NCBI GenBank assembly: GCA_041660165.1 | Contig: JBAZWW010000001.1 | Span: 169,035 to 233,034, forward strand | DNA length: 64,000 nt | DNA from: Patescibacteria group bacterium | Lineage (GTDB): Bacteria > Patescibacteriota > Patescibacteriia > UBA9934 | Direction of reading: 5' to 3' | Shown: in pieces, positions 1,926 through 62,795 of the stretch | Layout: every line of letters starts with the position of its first letter | How positions within the stretch are numbered: the stretch's first letter is position 1 | Made by a program: the position numbers and the translations under genes | Notes under the pieces: generated by a model | Seen by the model: only the letters and a program-made list of their open reading frames with translations | Databases searched by the model: none | Told to the model about the DNA's origin: nothing

Positions 1926-3718
1926 TCGCTGAAGTGTTTCCTAATCTTCGCCTCCCCCGCCGTTTTTCTTTTTTCGATTACAAAATTCCTGATTCAATGA
2001 CGGTTGCTGTTGGCGACCTGGTGGCGATTCCATTCCGCGGGCGCGAAATCATTGGTCTGGTTGCGCACACAAAAGAAACGTCCGCCGAGCGCAAGCTTTC
2101 ACAACTCGCAAACGTAGTCCACCGAAGCTGGTGCGAACCTGAGGACATCGTCCGCCTAGAAACCATCGCTCGCGCCATCGTGCAATCCCCCGCCAGCCTG
2201 TTTCACGGAATTTTCGATGGGGTAGGAACAAGTGATGCAAAACAAAATTACATAAGACTCTTATATAATTCGCTATCCGTAAAAAAAATTGACGTAGAGC
2301 AAGTGGGCGAGATCTTAAAATCCCCCGATCGAGTCCAGACCGTTTTCGGCGACAAAGTCCTCGGGGCAGTACTCGCAAGCGCGCTCGTCAAAACAACAAC
2401 GGGACAGTGTCTGTTCCTCGTCCCCACTGAAAAGGACGCGAAGGATCTGCAAACGGCTATCAAGTCCTCGGTTGTCTATCACGGTCACATTAAACCGAGG
2501 GACCGAGCCAGCATCGCTCGCGCCTGGCATGAGGGCAAGATCCGCATCCTTGTCGGCACGCGCGGAGCCTCACTCATCCCCGCGCATGAGCTGTCCGCCG
2601 TTGTCGTGCTCGACTCTGCAAACGACGAGCATGCCAGCACTCGCCGTAACCCGCGGTTTGACGCCCGCGAAGCCGTTAAACTACTGGCCTCCCAGCACTC
2701 CGCTCGCCTCTTCTTCGTGGATCCCCTCCCCCGGCTCGAAGAGCTCGCTCCCAGTCTCCCCGCCGTACGGGCGAGGCTCGCCTCGCCCCCTTCATTCCAG
2801 ATCATCGATCTCCGCAACGCTCTCCTCAGATCCGATGATCCCCTCTTAACCGAGCCCCTGCTTGAAGGCATAGAATCCGCTTTACAGAGCGGAAAAAAAG
2901 TGCTACTTTTTCTCAATCGCAAGGGCGTAGCCAAGCGTCTCCAGTGCGGAGCCTGCGGGCACATTCCCCTCTGCGGAACCTGCGGGAACGTTCCCTCCGT
3001 CAGGCTCGATGACCTGGTCTGCGATAGATGCGGAACAGAAATGTGGATCCCTAAAAATTGTCCAGCATGCGGAAAAGCAAAACTGGCCATGAAGGGCATA
3101 GGCGGAGCCAAGATTGCCGAGATCTTGCGCACACGGTTTTCTGACGCCACCGTTGGGCAAATCGAGAAGGGAAAAATTGAAAATCCCTACGCTCCCATCG
3201 TCATTGTCACCGAGTATTTCTTCAGCTCATTCCTTGATCCTTTCAAACACCTGAATCTTGGCCTAGTGGCCGACCTGGCCGGAGACATGGGCATTCACGG
3301 CGCGGACTTTCGCGGGGCCGAGAAAACCGCGCGCAAGTTGCATCGGTTACTCGCCTTCGCCAAACGCGAGAACGCCAACTGCATCTTGCAGACCTGGCTT
3401 CCTGATGTTCTGACGCCCATGTTGAATCTCGATACATTCATCAAAGACGAGCTCGAACTCCGTCAGCGCTATCAGCTCCCGCCGTTCTCCTCAAGATACG
3501 TCCTCGAAGGCGCCAAGATTGGAGAGCTCCCCGAAGCCCTGCGATCAATCGCCCGCGAACATGATGAAACAGTTGAAATTCGACCCCTCGTCACCTCGGG
3601 GTGTGATCCAACCCCTTCTAACCCTTTATCACCCTCTCTAACCCTCCTCCCAGATTCAGTGAAAATCACCCTCGATGGCCCCTATGAAATCCCTCCCCGT
3701 TCTCCACAACCCGAATAA
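1922..3718 (+). CDS. priA: primosomal protein N' (PriA)-like, helicase motifs degenerate
   Basis: The N-terminal 3'-DNA-binding domain (FDYKIPDSMTVAVGDLVAIPFRGREIIGLV) and the PriA Cys4-Cys4 zinc motif (CGACGHIPLCGTCG...CDRCG...CPACG) are present. The Walker A position reads ALVKTT instead of GxGKT. GTG start overlapping the upstream stop (GTGA). Confidence 0.6.
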   Translation: MIAEVFPNLRLPRRFSFFDYKIPDSMTVAVGDLVAIPFRGREIIGLVAHTKETSAERKLSQLANVVHRSWCEPEDIVRLETIARAIVQSPASLFHGIFDGVGTSDAKQNYIRLLYNSLSVKKIDVEQVGEILKSPDRVQTVFGDKVLGAVLASALVKTTTGQCLFLVPTEKDAKDLQTAIKSSVVYHGHIKPRDRASIARAWHEGKIRILVGTRGASLIPAHELSAVVVLDSANDEHASTRRNPRFDAREAVKLLASQHSARLFFVDPLPRLEELAPSLPAVRARLASPPSFQIIDLRNALLRSDDPLLTEPLLEGIESALQSGKKVLLFLNRKGVAKRLQCGACGHIPLCGTCGNVPSVRLDDLVCDRCGTEMWIPKNCPACGKAKLAMKGIGGAKIAEILRTRFSDATVGQIEKGKIENPYAPIVIVTEYFFSSFLDPFKHLNLGLVADLAGDMGIHGADFRGAEKTARKLHRLLAFAKRENANCILQTWLPDVLTPMLNLDTFIKDELELRQRYQLPPFSSRYVLEGAKIGELPEALRSIAREHDETVEIRPLVTSGCDPTPSNPLSPSLTLLPDSVKITLDGPYEIPPRSPQPE

Positions 3719-5535: not shown

Positions 5536-7118
5536 AAACCATTCTTAAAGAATTTCCTGAAGTATACCAGGGCCGGCTTAAGGGGTGAATACTCGTGATC
5601 AACAGCCTTCACTGTGACTATTTTTCCGCTCGCCCAGCTGTAGAAAATTACTGGTAAAAGGATAAGGCTGAGGCCAAGAGGGTGATTCAAATAAGGGGTG
5701 AAGATATGCGTCACCAGCACAAAAATAATCATCGAAATCATCCCGACAGGGATCCATCTGTCAGCAGATCCTTTTTGTAAAAGATACATTGTAGCGTTAG
5801 CAAAAGAGACGGCAATCGCAAGAACACCCAGAAGGCCGAACACACCCATTTTCAACCAAAGATCCTGATAGCCCCACTCGAATCTGTAGGTAGTCCACTC
5901 TCCAGTTCCATTAATAGCTCTCACTCTCGGATCATCAGATACGAACGTCACTTCTTTCCCAAACCCCGCTCCAATAATTGGCGACTTCATGATCTCGACC
6001 ATCATTGGCGGTAACAAATTCCAACGGCTCGACACAGCTAGTTCGCGCGCTCCCCCATCATCTCCTTTATAAAAGGGGCTGGCCGTAAAGTCAGGCCGAA
6101 TCGGCAACGGGAAAACAACAATGAGCCATAACAACCCTATGGCCGAGCATTGCATGAGACCGAGCACAAATGATCGCAGAACAATCGTCTTCAGCTTTGC
6201 TCGAGTAGCAACGAGCAAAATGATGAACACGAGCGCGCCAATGACCGCGCCGATCATAAAACTTCGGGACAAGCTCGCAGAAATGCCAGCAAGAAGAACG
6301 GCGTGAACAAGCCAAATGTTCTTCTCGATCTTCTCCGAAAAATACGTAGCCGAAGCAAAGATGAACTCAAAAGCAAGAACCACAATTTGGCTCTGCTCGA
6401 ATACTCGGAAGTACCAAGCACCCGTTGGGAATAAACCGGCGAGAGAACTCGGCGCTGTTAAGATGGTGATCTCGGCCAACCGCGCGTCCCGCACAAACGT
6501 GTAGAGATGCGAGAGGAACTTGCCGGGCAAATGCGTAAAGGCGAACAGAAGGCCGAGCGTTGACAAGGCAACCCAAACTGCCGAGACCGCCAGGGTCATC
6601 AGCATCAAGCGCTTCTTCTCACCGTCCCAAGCGATCGAGAGAATCGGCAAGATGTAGAGCACCAAGAGATACGAATTAAAATCGTCAAAGGCCTTGCCCG
6701 GTTCGTTCTGCAGAAAACCAACAATCCCGCCGAGCACAATCGCCGTACCGAATATAATCCACGGCACGTCTCGTCGAGGATTCAATCGCAGTGTCATCCT
6801 GAGCCCGTTCGACGGGCGAAGGATCTGAATTATCCATCCCAGCATCACCCCACCGAATATCACCATCCGAATGGACACCGGCAGACCAATCGACGACAGA
6901 TCAAACAAATGCCCGTGGCCACCAACGAATATCTCGAGGAATGCGAAGGCAAGTCCCCACTCAAGACGCTTAATTGAGAGACCGAGCGCCACCACGAACC
7001 CCGCGGATACGGGAATAATTGACCACCAAGAATGCTGGACAAGCACAGCCAAAAGATGCGCGCCTAGAAGACCGACGAGTACGTACAGTGATCGTTTGTC
7101 GAAGAATTGAGATAGCAT
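5532..7118 (-). CDS. O-antigen ligase (Wzy_C) family polytopic membrane protein
   Basis: About 12 TM helices and an SLSRSFMIGAVIG motif resembling the Wzy_C TxSRgaWlal signature. Start taken at Met22 of the ORF-track protein (MLSQFF) to avoid overlap with the DUF2207 gene. Contains an in-frame repeat-derived segment (see findings). Confidence 0.55.
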   Translation of the reverse strand: MLSQFFDKRSLYVLVGLLGAHLLAVLVQHSWWSIIPVSAGFVVALGLSIKRLEWGLAFAFLEIFVGGHGHLFDLSSIGLPVSIRMVIFGGVMLGWIIQILRPSNGLRMTLRLNPRRDVPWIIFGTAIVLGGIVGFLQNEPGKAFDDFNSYLLVLYILPILSIAWDGEKKRLMLMTLAVSAVWVALSTLGLLFAFTHLPGKFLSHLYTFVRDARLAEITILTAPSSLAGLFPTGAWYFRVFEQSQIVVLAFEFIFASATYFSEKIEKNIWLVHAVLLAGISASLSRSFMIGAVIGALVFIILLVATRAKLKTIVLRSFVLGLMQCSAIGLLWLIVVFPLPIRPDFTASPFYKGDDGGARELAVSSRWNLLPPMMVEIMKSPIIGAGFGKEVTFVSDDPRVRAINGTGEWTTYRFEWGYQDLWLKMGVFGLLGVLAIAVSFANATMYLLQKGSADRWIPVGMISMIIFVLVTHIFTPYLNHPLGLSLILLPVIFYSWASGKIVTVKAVDHEYSPLKPALVYFRKFFKNGL

Positions 7119-8903: not shown

Positions 8904-9467
8904 TTAGAAGGCTACGTTCACGTTCTGCTTTTCCTTCTCCTCGGCCCCAAAGAACTCGCCGGTCTTGAAACCGAGCAATGGAGCGATGATGTTCGAGGGG
9001 AAAACCTGCACCGCATTATTCATCTCACGCACCGTGGCATTGTAGTAACGACGAGCAGACTGAATGTCGTTTTCGAGAGAAGAGAGCTGTTCCTGAAGCT
9101 GTTTGAAATTTTCCGAGGCCTTGAGGTCAGGATAGCCCTCGGCCACTGCAAACAAGCTCTTGAGTGCGCCGGACAACATCGTTTCCGCTTGTGCTCGGCC
9201 AGCAATCGCTCCAGACGGAACGCTCATAGCGTTCGAGCGAGCCTTAGTCACTTCTTCGAGCACCGAGGACTCATGCGCTTTATAACCTTTTACGGTTTCG
9301 ACCAAGTTCGGCACAAGGTCATAACGTCGTTTTAACTGCACATCAATGTCTGACAGCGCGTTCTTCGTTCTGTTTCTGTAGCTCACAAGCTTGTTAAAGA
9401 TGAGCACAATCCAGCCAAGAATCAGCACCCCAACCACTAAAATAAGAATAGGCATATTGTCTGTCAT
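8904..9467 (-). CDS. lemA: LemA family protein
   Basis: N-terminal TM helix, then ALSDIDVQLKRRYDLVPNLVETVKGY, the conserved LemA core. Confidence 0.88.
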   Translation of the reverse strand: MTDNMPILILVVGVLILGWIVLIFNKLVSYRNRTKNALSDIDVQLKRRYDLVPNLVETVKGYKAHESSVLEEVTKARSNAMSVPSGAIAGRAQAETMLSGALKSLFAVAEGYPDLKASENFKQLQEQLSSLENDIQSARRYYNATVREMNNAVQVFPSNIIAPLLGFKTGEFFGAEEKEKQNVNVAF

Positions 9468-9545
9468 CTCGAGCGTAGCGAGAGATCTGATTGGCCGATG
9501 CCCCTGATTGCCAATTCAGATCCCTCCTTACGTCGGGATGACAAT
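9466..9545. repeat. palindromic dispersed repeat (GTCATCYYGAG...GAGAGATCTGATTGGCC family), hairpin-forming
   Basis: GTCATCTCGAGCGTAGCGAGAGATCTGATTGGCC pairs with GCCAATTCAGATCCCTCCTTACGTCGGGATGAC. Intergenic, between lemA and GT2. Confidence 0.7.
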
Positions 9546-9547
9546 AA

Positions 9548-10444
9548 TTAATTTCGTTTTAACCAAGCCGCTACATACGCCAGCACAATAAATTTTGGCG
9601 TGCAGGCCCAAAGTATAAGCCACGGAATAAGGCCGTGATGCTTTTTCATGTACTTGCGCAAACTCGTCCTAATCCATTTCTGCTTACGGAGCGTCGCTAC
9701 CTTGTTGAAGCTGTGGCCCTTGTGGTGGATGATCTCGCAATCGCCATAGGATCTAACTTTGAAGCCCGCATCAACCGCCACTTTGCAGTAGTCAACTTCC
9801 TCGAACCAAATGAAGTAACGCTCGTCGAGCAGGCCAACCTTGTCCATCAGTTCTCGGCGAATAAACATGAACGCGCCCATGATCGAATCAACATCTTGGG
9901 TTTTCAGAGGATCAACGTCGCGCATCATGTACCTGTCAACGGCCTTCAAGTGCTTGAACACGTGAGGTAGTTTGAACAGAATCTCAAGCTGATCGAGCAT
10001 CGTCGGGAACCGGCGAATACTCTCTTGATGCGAACCGTCGGGATATCTGATCACACAACTGCCAATACCCACCTCTTTATCTGCATCAAGGTGATCAATC
10101 ATCCGCTTCATCACTCCGGGCGGAACAATCGTATCCGGATTCAGCAGAAGCGCGTACCGTCCCGTGCATTGTCTCAACCCAACGTTGACCGCCGCTGCAA
10201 ACCCTCGATTCTCCGCGTTCACGATCACCTGCGCCTCCGGTAGGATTTCTCGAACAAACGCCGGCATCTTTTTGTCATTCGCATTATCAACCACCACGAC
10301 GTCAAAATTAACATCATGCGCCGCCGCTAGGCTCATAAAACACGCCCGCAAAACGTCCGGATCAGTTTTGTAGGTAACGATAACTATTGTTGTGTCTCTT
10401 AATTCGGCATTCATAGTGTTTGTCATTGTTGCATCATTCTCCAT
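9548..10444 (-). CDS. glycosyltransferase family 2
   Basis: IVIVTYKTD...VVVVDNAND and LLNPDT (DXD-like) motifs. Confidence 0.85.
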   Translation of the reverse strand: MENDATMTNTMNAELRDTTIVIVTYKTDPDVLRACFMSLAAAHDVNFDVVVVDNANDKKMPAFVREILPEAQVIVNAENRGFAAAVNVGLRQCTGRYALLLNPDTIVPPGVMKRMIDHLDADKEVGIGSCVIRYPDGSHQESIRRFPTMLDQLEILFKLPHVFKHLKAVDRYMMRDVDPLKTQDVDSIMGAFMFIRRELMDKVGLLDERYFIWFEEVDYCKVAVDAGFKVRSYGDCEIIHHKGHSFNKVATLRKQKWIRTSLRKYMKKHHGLIPWLILWACTPKFIVLAYVAAWLKRN

Positions 10445-10520
10445 CCTGAGCGAGAGCGAAGGATCCGCCTTTCCCAGCGGAGAGGGTCGGACCCTTCGGC
10501 CTAAGCCTCAGGGTGGGATG
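10439..10520. repeat. palindromic dispersed repeat, variant copy
   Basis: CATCCTGAGCGAGAGCGAAGGATCC ... GGACCCTTCGGCCTAAGCCTCAGGGTGGGATGG inverted repeat between the two GT2 genes. Confidence 0.6.
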
Positions 10521-10531
10521 GCTCTGCGCTG

Positions 10532-11239
10532 CTACAGACCGTGTTTCCTAGCAATAATCTCTCTCGCCTCAGTGTACTTCTTTATGCTCTTTGGTTGCCA
10601 GGGCGAGTATTGCCAAGGAATCCTGTAGGCGAGTTTTGGCAGCCAGGCCGAGCCGATCCTCGATACCCCGTCAATCCGCACGTGGAAGAGAACTCCCGGC
10701 ACGAGTATCCCTCGATGCCCCCGCTCAAGCATGGTCAACCACACGTCCCAGTCTTGCAGACGCTTGATCTGCTCGTCAAACCCCGGAAAATCTGCCCGCC
10801 GAATGAGCGAGGTGGTGTGGGCAAAGTTCATCTTCCGTATCTTCTCATCACTAAACGGCGTCCCCCAAAATGTCTTCCAGCCAAACGTAAAACCAGAATA
10901 GGCATAACTGGCCTGCGGATTTTGTATAAGACTCTTATGCATTTTTTCGAGCATCTCGTTCTCCATGACAATATCCGCATCGCAAAAAATGACATACTCG
11001 CCTCTACTCTCGGCGAACCCTCGGTTCCTTGCCGGATTCGAGCCTTTATTTTCTTGACGAACAACCTTAATCTTGCCGGCGTATTTTTCGAGTACTTTCA
11101 ATGTCTCATCCGTAGACCCGTCATCAACCACAATGATTTCGATCTCCTTATATGTTTGGTCGAGTACCGAATCAATACACCCCGGCAGTGAGCCCGCGTG
11201 CTGATACGTTGGAATGATGACTGAAATAAGTGGTTCCAT
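10532..11239 (-). CDS. glycosyltransferase family 2
   Basis: ISVIIPTYQHAGSL...IIVVDDGSTDET and FCDADI motifs. Confidence 0.85.
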   Translation of the reverse strand: MEPLISVIIPTYQHAGSLPGCIDSVLDQTYKEIEIIVVDDGSTDETLKVLEKYAGKIKVVRQENKGSNPARNRGFAESRGEYVIFCDADIVMENEMLEKMHKSLIQNPQASYAYSGFTFGWKTFWGTPFSDEKIRKMNFAHTTSLIRRADFPGFDEQIKRLQDWDVWLTMLERGHRGILVPGVLFHVRIDGVSRIGSAWLPKLAYRIPWQYSPWQPKSIKKYTEAREIIARKHGL

Positions 11240-11242
11240 AAC

Positions 11243-11272
11243 CTGTTATAACCCTCTATAACCCTCTATAAC
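11243..11272. repeat. tandem 10-bp repeat ATAACCCTCT x3
   Basis: Direct tandem copies between the GT2 start and the GT4 stop. The GT4 stop codon lies inside the repeat. Confidence 0.7.
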
Positions 11273-12462
11273 CCTCTCACCATGATGATCCCCCTCAGCT
11301 TACTCGTTTGCACTTCTCTTGTGAACTGCTCCAACACTCGTACCCGTCCGCGTGATCCGAGCTTTGATCGGAGTGCCGGATTTTCTACGAGTTTCCTAAT
11401 CGCCGCCTCGATCTCTTCGATGTGGTCATTCACAAGCAACCCCGTTTCTCCGTCGAGTACCGCTTCGACAACGCCCCCAATGTTCGTCGCCACCACCGGC
11501 AAACCGAACAAATTGGCTTCGAGGTACACGATTCCAAATCCTTCGCGATCAGTTTCAGACCGAGTAGTCGGCATCACAAAAATATCCGCTGATGCATAAA
11601 TCCCTGGCAGGTCTTCATCACTCGCGTTCAGAATCATTGTTACTCGATCACTCAATCCTCGGCGAGCAATCTCGGTTTCGAGCCTCTCACGCATCGGCCC
11701 ATCACCCACAATTGTATATTTAACGCCTGGCAAATGTTCCAGTATTTCAAGCACCTTCAGGTGCCCCTTTCTCTCAACCAGCCTCGCCACCGTCAACAGC
11801 ATTATCGTATAGTTATTTACCTTGTCATCTCGACCCATTCTGTCGTCTAGACCCATTCTGTCATCTCGACCCATTCTGTCATCTCGAGCAGAGCGAGAGA
11901 TCTGATTGGTCGACAGTGAGATGGGTACCCCAAGCGCCCCGCTGGCCAGCTTCAGCAACTCTTTCAGATCAACCAGCCCCACGCCCTTCCTCACGGATTT
12001 CGACGCCTCCACAAACACATCACTCACCGGCGGGTAGACCGTCAGGATGCGCCGTAAGGGTCGAGCCATGTCTCGACCCCGTACGAACCGCTCCACCTCG
12101 CCCCTCAAAGCCTCCGAATTCGTCACGATCAGGTCAGCACCTCGCAGAATCCTCCTGGACAACCATCTCTTCCACGCATTTCGTCTGGCGAGATCAAAAT
12201 CCATGCTATGCAGGAATATGCCGTACGGACGAGAAAATATCCACGCCACCGTTCCCACTGGCAAAATATGATTCACGAAATACAGATCTGCATCTTTTCG
12301 AGACTTCCAAAAAAATGAAAATAATTCCTTGTAGCCAGGTTTCTTGGACAGCTCAACCACTTTCACCTCGTGCGGGTATGTTTCAACAACCGCCGAAAGA
12401 TAGCGGGCCACGCCTCCTCGCTCTGAAAGCGCACCAAGCATTGGAGCAATCACGCGCCTCAT
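11266..12462 (-). CDS. glycosyltransferase family 4 with repeat-derived interdomain insertion
   Basis: The C-terminal domain has EGFGIVYLEANLFGLPVVATNIGG. The linker contains RDDRMGRDDRMGLDDRMGRDDK, encoded by the tandem/dispersed repeat at 11824-11925. Confidence 0.85.
   Translation of the reverse strand: MRRVIAPMLGALSERGGVARYLSAVVETYPHEVKVVELSKKPGYKELFSFFWKSRKDADLYFVNHILPVGTVAWIFSRPYGIFLHSMDFDLARRNAWKRWLSRRILRGADLIVTNSEALRGEVERFVRGRDMARPLRRILTVYPPVSDVFVEASKSVRKGVGLVDLKELLKLASGALGVPISLSTNQISRSARDDRMGRDDRMGLDDRMGRDDKVNNYTIMLLTVARLVERKGHLKVLEILEHLPGVKYTIVGDGPMRERLETEIARRGLSDRVTMILNASDEDLPGIYASADIFVMPTTRSETDREGFGIVYLEANLFGLPVVATNIGGVVEAVLDGETGLLVNDHIEEIEAAIRKLVENPALRSKLGSRGRVRVLEQFTREVQTSKLRGIIMVRGL
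11824..11925. repeat. tandem 18-bp repeat x3 plus dispersed palindromic repeat core, inside the GT4 CDS
   Basis: GTCATCTCGACCCATTCT / GTCGTCTAGACCCATTCT / GTCATCTCGACCCATTCT, then GTCATCTCGAGCAGAGCGAGAGATCTGATTGGTCGAC. In frame, the repeat length is a multiple of 3. Confidence 0.75.
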
Positions 12463-25356: not shown

Positions 25357-25413
25357 CTCTAGATCCTTCGCCTACGCTCAGGATCGAATACCACGCAACG
25401 CCACATACAAATA

Positions 25414-34865: not shown

Positions 34866-35305
34866 GGTTTTTTTTAATCCATCCCCCCAGCTAGGCCTTC
34901 GGTACGGGATGGTTTGCCTACTTTGTGGTCAATTACGACCACGTTCAGAGTTTCCTCGGTGGGCCCACCAAGTACGACTCTGTCACCAACAAATTCGTTC
35001 AGGCCGTTGGTGATTTTTTCCTTACCCCGGTTGTCACCCTCGAGCTCGGACACGCGTCAGGCACAGCCCGTCGCGCAATTGTAGCAGCGCTTCGATTATT
35101 GAGGGCCCCTTTACGGCTCCTCCTCGGCTCCGTTGACGACTCTTCGTCCGTTTGATGCTGGCGCGCTCAATTAGCCGCCATACCATCACCGGGCGTGACG
35201 TATGATCGATACCACCCATGATCTTGATGTCAGAGGGGCGATTCGACCATTTCAACTGACCGCTCAAACTCCGATAGCTTCGGGCAATCCCAGTACCATC
35301 GGACA
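34866..35305 (-). ncRNA. candidate structured noncoding RNA 1 (unidentified)
   Basis: Sigma70-like promoter on the minus strand (TTGACA, 17 nt, TATGCT at 35340-35312) inside the CCGGCTTGACAGAAGCCGG palindrome. No credible ORF or RBS; the 3' end is uncertain. Confidence 0.25.
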
Positions 35306-35410
35306 AAGAGTAGCATAGCAAAAATTCCGGCTTCTGTCAAGCCGGGGAAGCTGAAACGAGGCTATGACTAGCTATAAAGGAGCAATAGGCTATAAAGCCT
35401 AAAAACGAAT

Positions 35411-35896
35411 AATGACCGAGAAGCTTGCGCTACTCGGTCATTACGTTTTACGTGATTCGCACTGCGAGTACTCTATGGCTTTTGGCCAGAATGCTTCGCA
35501 GTCGAACTGTGAGATGTATGCGTCGGTCGCTTGACCGATACAGGCTGTGAAAGCCATACCCCCGTGAGGGCGCAATGCGGGGGCCTGTGGAACACCCCGG
35601 TTCGATTCGTTCACTCCCTAGTGTTTTCACATTCCCCCAAGCCATCTCAGCCGGGGATCCACAACACTTTGGAGCGAGTTCCCGATCACCCGAGCAGTCT
35701 TTTCGGTGCAGCGGTATCGGGCCCGCGCACCTATCCCTGTTTCGTGACGTGTTGTTGAGACACGTTTGTTACGCCGGGCAGTTCGCGCGACAATTGGCAT
35801 TTAACGTCTGTACCTGTCCGCAGAGCTTGTTACAGCTTGCTTCAGGACTGCCTAATGACAGACGGTCACGACATAGCTTTCGCTACTCCGAGACGA
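35411..35896 (-). ncRNA. candidate structured noncoding RNA 2 (unidentified)
   Basis: Minus-strand promoter (TTGACA, 17 nt, TAGATT at ~35930-35902) inside a second copy of the CCGGCTTGACAAAAGCCGG palindrome. Ends at the strong hairpin + U-run terminator AATGACCGAG...CTCGGTCATT at 35411-35450. Confidence 0.28.
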
Positions 35897-36023
35897 AAAG
35901 TAATCTACCAACAACTCCGGCTTTTGTCAAGCCGGAAAGGCCATAAATTGGCTAATATCCTTGACTTTATTAGAAAAGTCATATAGTCTTCCTAAGCGAG
36001 TTTCACGCTACCGGAGGACAAAA

Positions 36024-40459: not shown

Positions 40460-40465
40460 AGAGCA

Positions 40466-40551
40466 TTGTCATCTCGAGCTTAGCGAGAGATCTGAATTGG
40501 CCGACCAATCAGATCTCTCCTTACGTCGGGATGACACAATAATTATGACAA
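40466..40551. repeat. palindromic dispersed repeat copy
   Basis: GTCATCTCGAGCTTAGCGAGAGATCTGAATTGGCCGACCAATCAGATCTCTCCTTACGTCGGGATGAC, just upstream of the thioredoxin-like gene start. Confidence 0.7.
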
Positions 40552-58143: not shown

Positions 58144-59856
58144 TTACAAAACCTGTCCGCCAAAAGCCTCAACCAAAGTATCAACGGGATTTGTTTCTTC
58201 TTTGCCTTTTTCAAGGACGCAGACAATGGCCTTGGGCATGGCTTGCATGACGTTGCCAATGGCTTCTTGGAGGAGACGGATGGCTTTGTGCTCTTCCATG
58301 GCCTTAACATGAAACATGTAGGATAGGCTGATGGTCAGTGTGTCTCCGTCAATCGCTACCGGCTTGGACGAGTTCAAGATCATCGGTAGGGACATGTTGC
58401 GCTCAGCCACGTAGGCACAGCAACGGCCCCATTTTTCTTGGAGGTCGGCGAGAGTGAAGGGGAGGGTTAGAGAAGGTGATAAAGGGTTAGAAAGGGTTTG
58501 ATCCACCCCGACGACAGGAGGGGTAGCCTTGGTGCTATCAATGGGAGATGGTGGAAGATCGAAATCGGACGTCTGGAAAGCGCTTGCCGGCTCTGGAATC
58601 GGTGGTCGAGAGACTGGGATTGAGGCGATAGGCATTGGCTCGTTTCCTCGCCCCGCTAGGGGAGCCTCGCCCGTAGGCTGCAGAGGGCTGCGGCCGAGGG
58701 AGGGCAGGAGAGGGGCTGGTGGGATGGGAGCGGATTGAACGGCGATAGGAGCTACGGGGGCGCTCGAACAGGTCTCGACAATTGCGATCTCCAGTGGCAA
58801 CTGCGGAATCGAGCTCAAACTTGGCCGAAATCTTGCCGACAACATTAAGTCGAGAAACCGGCGGTGATCACTCGCAGTTCCGAGCTTGGCTGTCTCGGCT
58901 AATCGCTTGAGCGTGCCGGGATCGTATTCCTCGTTGCTCGAGAACCCGAGAGACGCGAACATCATAGTCCGCACGTACTCAAGAATCTCATCGAGCAGAT
59001 GACGAACGGATCCGCCCTGCTCAACAAACTCGTCTAATATTCGCAACGCCTCCGGGGCGTCTTTTTTGGTAACAGCCTGAACCAACTCAACCACAATTTC
59101 TGTGTGCGTTGCCGGCAAAATAATCGAGGCCTCCTTCTCAGTCACGGTTTTCTCACCGAGCGCAAATAGCTGACCGAGCAAACTCTCAGCATCACGCAAA
59201 CAGCCTTCGGATAGTCGAGCAATAGAAACGAACACCGACGGCTCAACCGCCACGCCCTCAGCTTTCGAGATTGTTTCGAGTCTCTCGATCATCTCTTTCG
59301 GCGGAACTCGATGAAAATCAAACCGCTGGCAACGCGAAATAATGGTCGCCGGAATTTTGTGAAGCTCGGTGGTGGCGAGAATAAAAACTACGTGCGCCGG
59401 CGGTTCTTCAAGCGTTTTCAAGAGCGCGTTGAAACTTCCCGTCGAAAACATGTGCACCTCATCAATAATAAAAACCTTGAACTTCCCACGCGACGGGGCG
59501 GTCCGAACATTCTCGATGATGTTTTCTCTTGTTTCATCCACCTTCGTCTGGCTAGCGGCATCGATCTCAATGATGTCCATCATTCGTCCTTGTTTCGTTT
59601 CAAGACAAGACCAGCAGGTATTGCACGGCTCACTCTGTCCAGCTTGCCTAGTCTCGCAATTCAAAGCCTTGGCGAGCAATCTCGCAATGGTCGTCTTACC
59701 CACGCCTCGCGGACCCGCAAACAGATACGCATGCGCCACACTCCCCTGCGCCAGCTGGTTCGTTACGGTGCGCACCACATGTCCCTGTTCCGCCACCTCG
59801 GCAAAGGTATTAGGTCGGTATTTTCTATACAGTGCTTCGGCCATAGTATGTGTCAT
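58144..59856 (-). CDS. dnaX: DNA polymerase III subunit gamma/tau
   Basis: YRPNTFAEV, GPRGVGKTT, the Cys4 zinc module and domain III. The proline-rich linker includes the repeat-derived SNPLSPSLTLP. Confidence 0.9.
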   Translation of the reverse strand: MTHTMAEALYRKYRPNTFAEVAEQGHVVRTVTNQLAQGSVAHAYLFAGPRGVGKTTIARLLAKALNCETRQAGQSEPCNTCWSCLETKQGRMMDIIEIDAASQTKVDETRENIIENVRTAPSRGKFKVFIIDEVHMFSTGSFNALLKTLEEPPAHVVFILATTELHKIPATIISRCQRFDFHRVPPKEMIERLETISKAEGVAVEPSVFVSIARLSEGCLRDAESLLGQLFALGEKTVTEKEASIILPATHTEIVVELVQAVTKKDAPEALRILDEFVEQGGSVRHLLDEILEYVRTMMFASLGFSSNEEYDPGTLKRLAETAKLGTASDHRRFLDLMLSARFRPSLSSIPQLPLEIAIVETCSSAPVAPIAVQSAPIPPAPLLPSLGRSPLQPTGEAPLAGRGNEPMPIASIPVSRPPIPEPASAFQTSDFDLPPSPIDSTKATPPVVGVDQTLSNPLSPSLTLPFTLADLQEKWGRCCAYVAERNMSLPMILNSSKPVAIDGDTLTISLSYMFHVKAMEEHKAIRLLQEAIGNVMQAMPKAIVCVLEKGKEETNPVDTLVEAFGGQVL

Positions 59857-59861
59857 CCTGA

Positions 59862-60160
59862 GACCTATCTCTGTGTCATCTCGAGTCCCGTCCGACGGGA
59901 CGAGAGATCTAATTGGCCGTCAGTTTCTCCAGCATCTTATGTCGATCTAGCATAAAAGACAAACCACTCACCCCCACCCTTTTCCCCTCAATAAATGAAA
60001 ATCAGATCTCTCGGCCTTCAGACGGCCTCGAGATGACAAGAGCTGACCGATCCACCAATTCTACCCCTCCTATCGTCGGGGTAGGACAGCCTGAATCGGC
60101 CGATCAGATCCCTCGGGCGTAGCCCTACGGGCGAGCCTTCGTTAGCGCTCAGGATGACAC
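59862..60160. repeat. cluster of two or three palindromic dispersed repeat copies between dnaX and the VirD4-like gene
   Basis: GTCATCCTGAGACC..., GTCATCTCGAGTCCCGTCCGACGGGACGAGAGATCTAATTGGCCGTCAG, and the reverse-orientation copy ...GCGCTCAGGATGACAC at 60120-60160. Confidence 0.65.
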
Positions 60161-60197: not shown

Positions 60198-62795
60198 CTA
60201 GGCGACCGGTGGCGGGGGTGGGGCGGTGATCTTTTTGCCCTTAGGGCCAAGACCGGCGCGTTCTGTAATTTCGGCAGAGACCTCATCCTTATCACGGCCG
60301 TATTGGATACGCGAAATCTCCTTGAGGGCAGCACCCACCCTCTTATTGCCTACCTGTTTAGGAAACACCTTAATGTTAAACGGCTTGCCCTGTGAGCCAT
60401 CAATGATCAGCTTCACATTCCATGTCAACGCAGAGTTATTCATCAAATCATACCCGCTGAAGGTGGGCTCGAAAATCTTGGCAAGGACCTCAGTATCCTC
60501 CGGACCAACGCGCGAAACAAAGTATGAGCCAACGTTACCAAGCACCGCATCACGAATCTCTGTCTTTCCGTCCTTTACCAGCTGGCCCATGTACTGGTGA
60601 GCCATGATTAAGCTTAGTTTGTATTTTCTAGCTTCAGAAAGAATGGTGGCAATAGACGGCGTGATGAAGTTCTGGAACTCGTCAATATAGAGATAGAACG
60701 GCCGGCGCTTTTCCTCAGGCATGTCCGCGCGGGCAAAGGCGGCCATCTGCAATTTTGAAACTAGAATCAAACCGAGCAAGTTGGCATTCACGTCGCCCGT
60801 TTTTCCTTTCGACAAATTCACGAGCAGAATCTTGCCGTTATCCATGATATCGCGGAAATTGAAAGCTGACTTGGTCTGGCCAATGATATTGCGCATCATC
60901 TCGTTCTCAACAAACCTGCCAACCTTGGAAACAAGGTAGCCCATCATTTCACTCTTGTGATAATCGCTCGTTTTGGCCATTTCATCTTCCCAGAACGAAC
61001 GAACAACAGGGTCTTTCACCTTATCTACCCATTTCTTTTGGAACGCCTCATCCGCAATCATGCGCGGGATCTCAATCAGCGTGCCAGGGTTCTCAACATC
61101 AGCCATGAGCGTCAGCATGTAATTGCGCATGTTGTGCTCAAACATCGGGCCGATCATTTCCGGCGGGAAGAGCATATAAAACACACTGATCATTTCCTGC
61201 ACAGCAAAATCGCGCATCCCCTCATTTGGCGCCTCAAGCATGTTGAGTCCCATCGGCTTGTCCGTATCCGACGGATTGAAATAAATGACATCGTCAATCC
61301 TATCCTTTGGAATAAGTTCGAGTAATCCGTCAGCCAAGTCCCCGTGCGGATCAATGACCGCAATGCCCCGGCCCGCACGGATATCCTGCACTGCAAGATT
61401 CTTAATGAATTCAGATTTACCAGTACCCGTTTTACCAATGATGTACGTATGGCGAAGACGATCAGCCTCTTTGATGAAAATATCCGTCTTCTTTCCGCGA
61501 TATTCGTTGTAGCCGAGTAATAATCCCTCGGTAGGGATGTTGGTTGGCGGTGGGGCCGAACGGGCATGCATCCAGCGGATGTTAGGCGTTTCACTCGTAG
61601 GTAGCGGAAGATGCCAAAGACTCGTCAGCTCCTCAGTATTCAGAACAAGTTTGTAACCCTCAGAAAATGTGCGGAAAATAAACGCCTCAATCAGCGCCCG
61701 CTTTGATCCGGGGATGCTCTTCTCAAGCGAATTGCCGTACTCGTAAATGTTGTACTGGCCAAAAGCCTGAATGACGTTTGAAAGGGCCAGCTGAGCGGAT
61801 TCGGCCGTGGCAGAAGAAGCTACGATGCGAATATTGGATTCAAGTCCTGCTTTGCTGAGCTTATTTTCTATACCCTCAAGCATCTTTGTTTCAGCCGCAG
61901 ACATCTTGCGTTCGCGCAACTTTTCTTTCTCTTTCTCATGAGTCTTTTCAGAAAAGAACCAATCACGCCAGCCCTCGCCAGCGTTCCCCTTCAAAGCCTG
62001 CTCCAGCGTCATCCCTTTCTGCATGTTCTTCACAATCTTCATGCCCGGTTCCCGCCAAGAATGATGCGTAGGGCGAACAAGAAACTGAATAGCCACGCCA
62101 TCGCCATCAGGGACCTTTGACAAGGCATTCGTCAAAGCGTTCAGCGGATCAACTTCGATTTCTTTATAGGTCTTCAAAGGGAATGCACTCTTGCGTTTGA
62201 ACTTCAAATACCCGCCAAGTACCACGCCCGTTGGGGAAAACATGTTGTAGTCGCCGACGTCTTCCATTTCTGCATCTGGATACTGCGCGTGCATCTGCTC
62301 AGAAAAAAACTCTTGATACTTGAGCGGAATAGTCACGTAAAAACTGATGAGCTTCTCCATGGCCACAATCTCAAAAGAGAAAACGTCAGACTCGCCGTAC
62401 AGCCAGGCATGCAGACCGTGATCCGGCTTCAAACCGCCGAGCGCTGAAAAAATGGACTCGCCAACAGCCACTTTTTCCTTTGTGATCTGGGCCGTAGGAA
62501 TCTGCCTAGCTTCTTCCTCCGAACGAAACTTTGGCAAAATGATGCGAAGCGTCACCAGCCGGTCCTCTCCCCCGCGGGCATGCGCCTGCGCGTGGAGTTT
62601 TGCTCGCAAAATGTTAATACCGATAATGAAAATAACGGCAAGAACCACAGCGCCTATTAAAAACGGCAAGTACTGAGCAAAGCCCGAACTTTGCGCCGTG
62701 ACTATAATCTGGCCGGTGTCCGTAGACCCAAAAAGCGGATCTTGCCCAAGACCGGTATCAAGCTGGGCCAATAATGTTCCTCCAAGTAAAATCAC
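60198..62795 (-). CDS. VirD4/TraD-like (type IV coupling protein / HerA-FtsK superfamily) ATPase with N-terminal TM helices
   Basis: Walker A IGKTGTGKSEF, VIDPHGD, Walker B-like FYLYIDEFQNF and a C-terminal polyproline tail. Confidence 0.6.
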   Translation of the reverse strand: MILLGGTLLAQLDTGLGQDPLFGSTDTGQIIVTAQSSGFAQYLPFLIGAVVLAVIFIIGINILRAKLHAQAHARGGEDRLVTLRIILPKFRSEEEARQIPTAQITKEKVAVGESIFSALGGLKPDHGLHAWLYGESDVFSFEIVAMEKLISFYVTIPLKYQEFFSEQMHAQYPDAEMEDVGDYNMFSPTGVVLGGYLKFKRKSAFPLKTYKEIEVDPLNALTNALSKVPDGDGVAIQFLVRPTHHSWREPGMKIVKNMQKGMTLEQALKGNAGEGWRDWFFSEKTHEKEKEKLRERKMSAAETKMLEGIENKLSKAGLESNIRIVASSATAESAQLALSNVIQAFGQYNIYEYGNSLEKSIPGSKRALIEAFIFRTFSEGYKLVLNTEELTSLWHLPLPTSETPNIRWMHARSAPPPTNIPTEGLLLGYNEYRGKKTDIFIKEADRLRHTYIIGKTGTGKSEFIKNLAVQDIRAGRGIAVIDPHGDLADGLLELIPKDRIDDVIYFNPSDTDKPMGLNMLEAPNEGMRDFAVQEMISVFYMLFPPEMIGPMFEHNMRNYMLTLMADVENPGTLIEIPRMIADEAFQKKWVDKVKDPVVRSFWEDEMAKTSDYHKSEMMGYLVSKVGRFVENEMMRNIIGQTKSAFNFRDIMDNGKILLVNLSKGKTGDVNANLLGLILVSKLQMAAFARADMPEEKRRPFYLYIDEFQNFITPSIATILSEARKYKLSLIMAHQYMGQLVKDGKTEIRDAVLGNVGSYFVSRVGPEDTEVLAKIFEPTFSGYDLMNNSALTWNVKLIIDGSQGKPFNIKVFPKQVGNKRVGAALKEISRIQYGRDKDEVSAEITERAGLGPKGKKITAPPPPPVA

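Follow-up and report, generated by a model that had tools for sequence, protein, structure and literature searches.

How has a short DNA repeat come to be translated in the middle of an intact enzyme, and is it the DNA or the peptide that has been kept? This question is raised by a glycosyltransferase gene in a 64,000-nucleotide stretch of a Patescibacteria genome (contig JBAZWW010000001.1, positions 169,035 to 233,034), which was analyzed as a whole and is called the window here. The gene (positions 11266-12462 of the window, minus strand) encodes an intact GT4 glycosyltransferase of 398 amino acids with a GT-B fold, and 90 nucleotides of repeat, lying antisense to it, are read in frame as a 30-residue, Arg- and Asp-rich part of the loop that joins its two Rossmann domains. 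After comparing the insert with other copies in the window, with orthologous loci and with related hairpins across bacteria, we consider it likely that it is an old copy of an interspersed hairpin of the type of the CGTC-tagged repetitive extragenic palindromes (CGTC-REPs) and SRMs, accompanied by three truncated 5′ stubs, which is tolerated in the GT4 linker and kept as nucleic acid. The sequence would then be maintained as nucleic acid and not as peptide, the peptide being merely tolerated.

The assignment of the gene was based on its open reading frame (ORF), Pfam, AlphaFold2, Foldseek and syntenic orthologs. The ORF reads without interruption through the repeats (...LSTNQISRSARDDRMGRDDRMGLDDRMGRDDKVNNYTIMLLTVARLVERKGH... 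and ...STNQISRSARDDRMGRDDRMGLDDRMGRDDKV...), which bears out a preliminary description of the locus that had reported three 18-bp units followed by a repeat unit in frame in the gene. Pfam placed Glyco_transf_4 (N-domain) at residues 29-128 and Glycos_transf_1 (C-domain) at residues 219-373, so that the repeat-encoded peptide S184-D213 (11824-11913, minus strand, by the codon table) lies between the two domains, also as described. An AlphaFold2 model built with 23 homologs gave a confident GT-B fold (mean predicted local distance difference test score, pLDDT, 83; predicted template modeling score, pTM, 0.80), in which both Rossmann domains were confident and residues 161-167 and 176-214 had a pLDDT below 50. 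S184-D213 falls wholly inside the second of these low-confidence segments, directly before the first C-terminal Rossmann strand (E220-225), and the modeling proposed in the preliminary description thus placed the insert in an unstructured interdomain segment. The best Foldseek matches of the model were BshA, PimB' and HepE, followed by further solved GT4 enzymes, and the protein retains all 60-plus family-invariant residues. Homologs of about 330-370 amino acids are without the repeat, and those of about 330-340 amino acids are without the whole extended linker. As with Rickettsia palindromic elements (RPEs), the repeat therefore stands in frame in an intact ORF, is missing from some homologs, and occupies an unstructured region where it leaves the fold undisturbed. 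Because the loop is predicted to be disordered, the repeat peptide can be tolerated, and most simply it would be a passenger of a flexible loop. At the end of the gene, a perfect 10-bp tandem repeat (TATAACCCTC, 3.1 copies, 11238-11277) overlaps the stop codon and the short spacer to the next GT2 gene.

One hairpin repeat unit occupies 11877-11913 on the plus strand and was delimited by its 92% identity to 9460-9498, a hairpin scan, covariation and the copies in two orthologs, L001 and L002. It begins with the tag TGTC (11877-11880), after which the outer stem ATCTC (11881-11885) pairs with GAGAT (11897-11901), two tandem G.A pairs are formed between GA at 11886-11887 and GA at 11895-11896, and an inner GC/GC stem (11888-11889 with 11893-11894) closes on the loop AGA (11890-11892); the tail CTGATTGGTCGA follows at 11902-11913, the tail of the element also being written CTGATTGG. 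The 37-mer GTCATCTCGAGCAGAGCGAGAGATCTGATTGGTCGAC of the unit is located at 11878-11914, and the unit encodes S184-D195 (STNQISRSARDD). Its stem, ATCTCGAGC/GCGAGAGAT, comprises nine positions, begins with A-T and T-A, and carries G.A/A.G at positions 6-7; covariation backs the outer five base pairs. In general, a unit in the window consists of a (T)GTC tag, a 5-nucleotide outer stem (ATCTC, ATCCT, ATCCC or ACCCY), GA, an inner stem-loop, GA, the complementary five nucleotides, and a tail CTGA(A)TTGG, with an inner stem-loop that varies from the simplest form, GC-NNN-GC, up to about 25 nucleotides. A reading of the GA...GA core as a hammerhead or K-turn was dropped by sequence reasoning, as CUGA varies between stem variants and no 3-nucleotide bulge is present.

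The unit belongs to a dispersed family. Related copies of the GT4 repeat in the window lie at 9460-9498 (92% identity over 39 nucleotides), 40465-40503 (79%) and 59882-59920 (the 3′ half); a 17-mer core with up to three mismatches was matched four times against 0.26 expected, a number reached in 0 of 100 shuffles, and a 19-nucleotide tail was matched five times against 0.03 expected. The dispersed core copies of the preliminary description are therefore real, but the hairpin scan counts about 15 family members in the window instead of four. Between the genes for a GT2 glycosyltransferase and LemA, a plus-strand unit (9462-9498) and a minus-strand unit (9506-9543) form an inverted dimer with the tags outward (HH; 9462-9543), which folds into one long hairpin (−21 kcal/mol, z = −5.7), and a second intergenic inverted dimer with outward tags is found at 40467-40536. 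The "palindromic repeat" first reported in the GT4 gene is thus a DNA-level interspersed repeat, but this copy is only a single arm, a monomer, of what is an inverted dimer intergenically; the monomer itself is a small hairpin. The TGTC tag is shared by the units at 9462, 40467, 59874 and 6792.

We then scanned one genome per species with the 26-nucleotide consensus GTCATCYYGAGCNNNGCGARRGATCT and found the hairpin (also written GTCATCCTGAGCGNAGCGAAGGATCT; unit pattern TGTCATCTCGAG) in at least 120 stretches from more than 10 phyla, which provided 143 instances, 139 hairpins and 120 loci; the family-wide counts given here refer to these listed matches. The hosts listed were Acidobacteriota, Chloroflexota, Gemmatimonadota, Omnitrophota, Bdellovibrionota, Planctomycetota, Bacteroidota, Bacillota, Cyanobacteria, Nitrospirota, several Proteobacteria, Saccharibacteria and Patescibacteria. 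The search pattern left all 16 YY/RR stem combinations free, and the stem was nevertheless complementary in 135 of the 143 instances (CT-AG 110, CC-GG 22, TC-GA 2, TT-AA 1), with eight off the diagonal. The loop was GNA in 120 instances and AGA, as in the GT4 unit, in only two. The TC/GA stem that dominates in the window is rare elsewhere, and the tail, CTG(A)(T)TGG in the window, is CT in the pan-bacterial set. When the full text of the literature was searched for the repeat and for peptides translated from it (CHPERSEGS, LRFAQDD, GTCATCCTGAGC and similar), only chance primer matches were returned.

The same set of hairpins changes the view of the 18-bp units. Three of them (TGTCATCTCGA plus CCCATTC) stand on the plus strand at 11823-11840, 11841-11858 and 11859-11876 (together 11823-11876), as found by Tandem Repeats Finder and a repeat search and by comparison with L001. 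Tandem Repeats Finder reported 11823-11887 with a period of 18, 3.6 copies, 91% matches and a score of 116; the middle unit carries two substitutions, and the fractional "0.6" copy is the first 11 nucleotides of the adjoining repeat unit. Each 18-bp unit consists of the first 11 nucleotides of the element and a 7-nucleotide filler, and the units encode (RMGRDD)-type hexapeptides (R196-D213). Across phyla, truncated heads in the same orientation were present within 45 nucleotides upstream of 28 of the 139 hairpins compared with 2 of 139 downstream; their spacing peaks at 17-24 nucleotides upstream (19 positions), which is less than one full unit, and some hairpins have two in series. An additional stub accompanies an intergenic unit in L001. 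As judged from these comparisons, the 18-bp array is part of the typical anatomy of the element, in the form of truncated 5′ stubs, and is not the distinct tandem repeat that was first proposed. At an unrelated intergenic locus of a Joint Genome Institute metagenome (L127, 8650-9000), an inverted dimer has two 23-nucleotide stubs, one of them with the filler of the GT4 stubs, CCCATTCT; because this filler is shared, it may belong to the element and not to the flank.

The number of stubs at the GT4 site is three in the window and one in L001, so the proposed variability of the unit count holds. However, a period of 18 nucleotides equals six codons, and the gain or loss of a stub alters the length of the loop while the frame is kept; a length polymorphism is conceivable, whereas on/off phase variation is not. 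Contingency loci have units whose length is not a multiple of three, or lie at a promoter, and the GT4 array with its 18-nucleotide period has neither character. A scan of metagenomes for alleles with other stub numbers returned only the unrelated locus L127, which is uninformative on population variation. Stubs might be gained and lost through replication slippage beside a stalled hairpin, or through repair after cutting upstream of the motif.

The history of the insert was followed in syntenic loci from nine GT4 orthologs, the relatives of the gene being Patescibacteria. L001, which comes from an independent sample (ERZ27247924) and is 83% identical in amino acids, carries the GT4 unit with loop GGA and one stub at the linker site; L002, 56% identical, carries it with the rare loop AGA seen in the window, an ATCCT/AGGAT stem and no stub. 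Other hairpins occupy the site in L004 (CCCC-GACGCCAGGA-GGGG) and L005 (CCCCCTCC-TTCGAAA-GGAGGGGG), L006 has two units there, L130 has a decayed trace, and L128 and L129 have nothing recognizable. By this sequence comparison, the GT4 copy was shown to date to the common ancestor of lineages that are now about 56-60% identical in the GT4 protein, and the varied hairpins at one site point to turnover of that site.

The strongest competing explanation is that a mobile palindromic element, similar to a miniature inverted-repeat transposable element or an RPE, transposed into the gene recently and in this lineage only, as the preliminary description had favored. The element is indeed multi-copy and dispersed; moreover, the loop GACGCCAGGA at the site in L004 is identical to that of this genome's own intergenic copy, and the other variants in L005 and L006 would also fit turnover or re-occupation. 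However, the same copy with its rare AGA/GGA loop is present in both L001 and L002, although the GT4 protein of L002 is only 56% identical, so that the insert is neither recent nor lineage-specific. Additionally, the GT4 copy is a monomer only, and neither a target-site duplication nor a gene for a transposase or nuclease was seen nearby in the DNA examined, which does not support active mobility of this copy. We therefore regard recent transposition as unlikely.

An old hairpin kept as nucleic acid is favored by the way in which the copies have diverged. When the window is compared with L002, the nucleotide identity of the GT4 unit is 83% (83% at third codon positions), against 63% (45.5%) in the remainder of the gene. 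A second in-frame unit, in a gene for a 528-residue Wzy-like membrane protein (QILRPSNGLRMT; 6792-6835, plus strand), is 94% identical (83% at third positions) against 63% (43%) for the rest of that gene, with an identical peptide; this in-gene unit is missing in L005. In the GT4 stem, CT/AG and TC/GA alternate between orthologs in such a manner that the pairing is kept and the amino acids are changed (S to L and R to Q, or the reverse). Nucleotides that are better kept than amino acids, together with compensatory changes in the stem, are the opposite of a protein-level feature and indicate nucleic-acid constraint or homogenization with other copies. The refutation proposed in the preliminary description, distant orthologs sharing the insert with amino acids conserved in preference to nucleotides, was looked for, and the reverse was observed, in favor of a DNA repeat.

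The unit also resembles a described group of repeats. Members of the CGTC-tagged REP superfamily have a tag that may be TGTC (CCTC is allowed), stems of 8-9 bp starting with A-T pairs, a loop of 4-5 nucleotides and a 3-nucleotide unpaired tail with the consensus CCA; HH dimers predominate, no transposase is associated, and units occur within genes (Di Nocera et al. 2013, PMC3733652). Similarly, GT4-type units have an unpaired (C/T)GTC tag at one end (TGTC at 11877-11880 in the GT4 copy), a stem of about nine positions and a short unpaired tail; they form HH inverted dimers (9462-9543 and 40467-40536) with no transposase nearby, and inside genes they encode short loop peptides, in some cases at one site shared by related species. 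In contrast to the CGTC-REPs, the stem is broken by two G.A pairs, the loop has three nucleotides (AGA here) instead of 4-5, some copies having long inner stem-loops, and the tail is CTG(A) and not CCA. Patescibacteria are a phylum outside the published survey, in which 5′ stub arrays are not described either (PMC3733652). The superfamily includes RPE-4 and RPE-6 of Rickettsia conorii and dRS3 of Neisseria, and RPEs are inserted in frame in protein genes (PMC3733652); the analogy with RPEs drawn in the preliminary description was therefore apt, since the unit largely fits the description of the superfamily. As with RPEs, in-frame inserts are found in many unrelated genes of a host-dependent bacterium with a reduced genome, in surface loops and with the host protein intact. 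REP/REPIN-RAYT systems, in which RAYT denotes the REP-associated tyrosine transposase, likewise consist of short hairpins and their inverted dimers, together with a gene for a small single-strand-specific nuclease that has its own repeats on either side; here, however, the tag is TGTC and not GTAG, and the associated enzyme, described below, belongs to the GIY-YIG family and not to the IS200/IS605-type tyrosine transposases.

Ogata and co-workers reportedly described RPEs in frame in protein genes in 2000. RPE-1 is about 100-150 bp long and is not known to be related in sequence to the GT4 repeat, whereas the GT4 insert is a 37-nucleotide monomer plus stubs.

A further link leads to the Ssn nucleases. 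The dRS3-containing NTS of Neisseria (CGTCATTCCCGCGMAVGCGGGAATCYRG) and related SRM hairpins are recognized as single-stranded DNA (ssDNA) by single-domain GIY-YIG nucleases of ~94 amino acids (Ssn; cd10448), which bind only ssDNA and not RNA and cut one strand only, a few nucleotides upstream of the motif; ssn genes typically have the motif on both flanks in inverted orientation (NTS-ssnA-NTS) (Chenal et al. 2025, PMC11893778). Like SRM and NTS, the units are oriented hairpins in which GTC(A/T)(C/T) is conserved upstream and a C follows the palindrome; a copy number in the hundreds per genome and clustering around envelope and surface genes are likewise counted among the likenesses. When 3,253 ORFs from the 120 loci were clustered, only two-component regulators, by chance, and a small GIY-YIG family recurred. 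In 6 of the 120 loci, all in other phyla, a gene for a GIY-YIG protein of 93-100 amino acids (PF01541) lies between two inverted units of the 26-nucleotide hairpin with their tags outward. Because this bracketing matches NTS-ssnA-NTS, the GT4 unit is built like an SRM and, in other phyla, also has the neighboring gene of one. Functionally, it would be grouped with the Ssn-related motifs (NTS/dRS3, CGTC-REPs and RPE-4/-6), and it may be bound as ssDNA, on the plus strand here, by an Ssn-type nuclease cutting a few nucleotides 5′ of the tag. Hairpin, GIY-YIG gene of ~95 amino acids and inverted hairpin form compact modules of about 400-450 bp (L012, L060, L084, L086, L119 and L121), the hosts of which include Bacteroidota, Chloroflexota and Terriglobia. 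Among the database relatives of the nuclease, many are found on very short contigs or recur on many contigs, which is expected of a multi-copy element.

Several observations speak against an old hairpin kept as nucleic acid and allied to the SRMs. The folding energy of the single GT4 unit is no better than that of shuffles (nearest-neighbor folding, −4.1 kcal/mol, z = +0.5), and because of this the claim of a hairpin rests on covariation and not on energy. The high nucleotide identity is based on merely 12-13 codons per copy, and it could have arisen via gene conversion from other copies rather than by selection. The hairpin is dispensable for the gene, as L128 and L129 are without the unit and that of L130 has decayed. 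Because both TC/GA and CT/AG stems occur in the window, simple co-evolution with one trans-acting factor is weakened. The published SRM string, HGTCWYN(0-2)YYVSBRHN(0-5)WNVSBRGN(0-2)RNCYNB, had no match in the window, and both the GT4 unit and the pan-bacterial consensus fail it; the Neisseria NTS matched as a positive control, and it is owing to the G.A pairs, by which the stem is interrupted, that the string misses the unit and the consensus. Moreover, a search of the window and of about 190 kb of related DNA from the candidate phyla radiation (CPR) by tblastn and a custom hidden Markov model revealed no Ssn-like GIY-YIG gene. A database search with a GIY-YIG profile met a huge family, in which all 8000 of 8000 candidates passed, and among the named ones of the best 120, most of which are unnamed, none bore a Patescibacteria label. 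A shift in the specificity of a trans-acting factor in this lineage, considered for the TC/GA stems, was likewise weakened by the persistence of CT/AG copies in the same window.

A role of the transcript was also considered, in which the complement of the unit would make translation of the mRNA pause between the domains, or would serve as an RNase or stability element. The covariation of the hairpin is strand-neutral, with wobble-compatible exceptions numbering five on the tag strand and three on the other, and for REPs that lie between co-directional genes an action as RNA has often been argued (PMC3733652). Nevertheless, the predicted stability of the monomer is weak on both strands, and orthologs without the hairpin exist. 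In an Rfam scan of the whole window at gathering thresholds only two tRNAs were detected, and a permissive scan of 9300-12100 gave nothing relevant. In addition, the characterized protein partner of related motifs binds ssDNA only (PMC11893778). We consider an mRNA function improbable.

Could the insert be an ordinary protein feature, either a linker of low complexity or a tandem (RMGRDD)n peptide under selection for charge or flexibility, whose likeness to the intergenic repeats is incidental? Many GT4 enzymes do have variable interdomain loops, and a conserved extra helix of the clade (KELLKLASGALG) lies just upstream. However, this explanation is very hard to reconcile with the 92% identity over 39 nucleotides to a non-coding copy and with the conservation of third positions. 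Amino acids change where pairing is kept, and the unrelated peptides of the orthologs at this site are each encoded by a hairpin. Finally, an assembly artefact or a decaying pseudogene can practically be dismissed: the DNA comes from a metagenome assembly, in which repeats may be joined wrongly, but the 65-bp array is shorter than the assembler k-mer suggested by the contig name (k141), its middle stub carries two substitutions, the independent sample of L001 has the same unit with one stub, and the ORF is intact with its 60-plus invariant residues.

Six of the roughly 15 units fall within an 8.4-kb envelope-glycan locus with the gene order Wzx-like flippase, GT4, GT2, GT2, LemA, DUF2207 and Wzy-like, and some of the intergenic unit positions of this locus are also occupied in syntenic loci. 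NTS cluster around surface genes in Neisseria, and only 2% are within genes in N. meningitidis (PMC11893778); the units cluster similarly at the envelope-glycan locus, although the numbers are small, whereas 4-5 of the about 15 window units are inside genes. We speculate, with considerable doubt, that selection maintains the hairpins in and around this locus, including those in the GT4 and Wzy-like genes, because an Ssn-type nuclease would recognize them; this nuclease would limit or shape the recombination of incoming DNA at surface-polysaccharide genes in a CPR episymbiont with natural competence. The stubs, present in about 14-20% of the family members listed, would then be in vivo scars of cutting and repair. 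If this were true, a genome-defense or recombination-control system would directly generate protein length variation.

In-frame repeat insertion of this kind is already known in Rickettsia and other bacteria. Modestly new are the CPR host, the G.A-interrupted subfamily that the published SRM motif misses, and the family-wide stubs. In-frame inserts of the REP/RPE type are thereby extended to Patescibacteria, with at least four genes affected in one 64-kb window (GT4, Wzy-like, PriA and DnaX, that is, at least three besides GT4); naive annotation and alignment of CPR proteins will consequently include repeat-derived peptides. A link is made between the pan-bacterial hairpin GTCATCCTGAGCGNAGCGAAGGATCT and the Ssn/SRM system, which was described only recently and whose published search string does not detect this hairpin. 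The GT4 copy offers a clean natural example of selection, or homogenization, acting on DNA within a coding region, and the 5′ stubs of the family leave a concrete, testable footprint from which the processing of the motif in vivo could be read.

The remaining copies in the window are located as follows. A pair of related units lies between the two GT2 genes (10443-10464, plus strand; 10491-10514, minus strand), a spot that is occupied in the syntenic loci L001, L005 and L004. A variant unit, ACCCC-GACGACAGGA-GGGGT, is in frame in the DnaX tau linker (58505-58524, plus strand), and a member of the ATCCT/AGGAT type is found at 25363-25384 (minus strand). Between dnaX and a TraG/VirD4-like gene, a cluster comprises units at 59874-59920 (plus) and at 60006-60038, 60063-60082 and 60096-60159 (all minus), with a truncated head at 59851-59862; the TraG/VirD4-like coupling protein has 865 amino acids (60198-62795), and 4-5 hairpin units are densely packed between dnaX and its gene (59851-60160). 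The GATGAC heads of the units at 9467 and 59856 provide upstream ATGs by which the mechanical ORFs of LemA and DnaX gain four codons; the called LemA start is the downstream ATG.

Three other repeats were noted in the window. A 43-nucleotide repeat, 93% identical and inverted on the plus strand (3605-3647 and 58461-58503), is read in frame in two replication genes that lie on opposite strands, at the PriA C-terminus (..DPTPSNPLSPSLTLLPDS, six residues beyond the orthologs) and in the DnaX tau linker (..QTLSNPLSPSLTLPF..), and gives the same peptide in both; in the REP literature, intragenic REPs favor replication and repair genes. AT-rich palindromes of a separate dispersed family (TTATATAAGAGTCTTATATAA-like) occur in both orientations at 2248, 23428, 26411, 42954 and 47144; they may be promoter or terminator elements. 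A 63-nucleotide direct repeat, 71% identical, is found at 35302-35364 and 35892-35954, 590 nucleotides apart, and contains a CCGGCTT..AAGCCGG hairpin.

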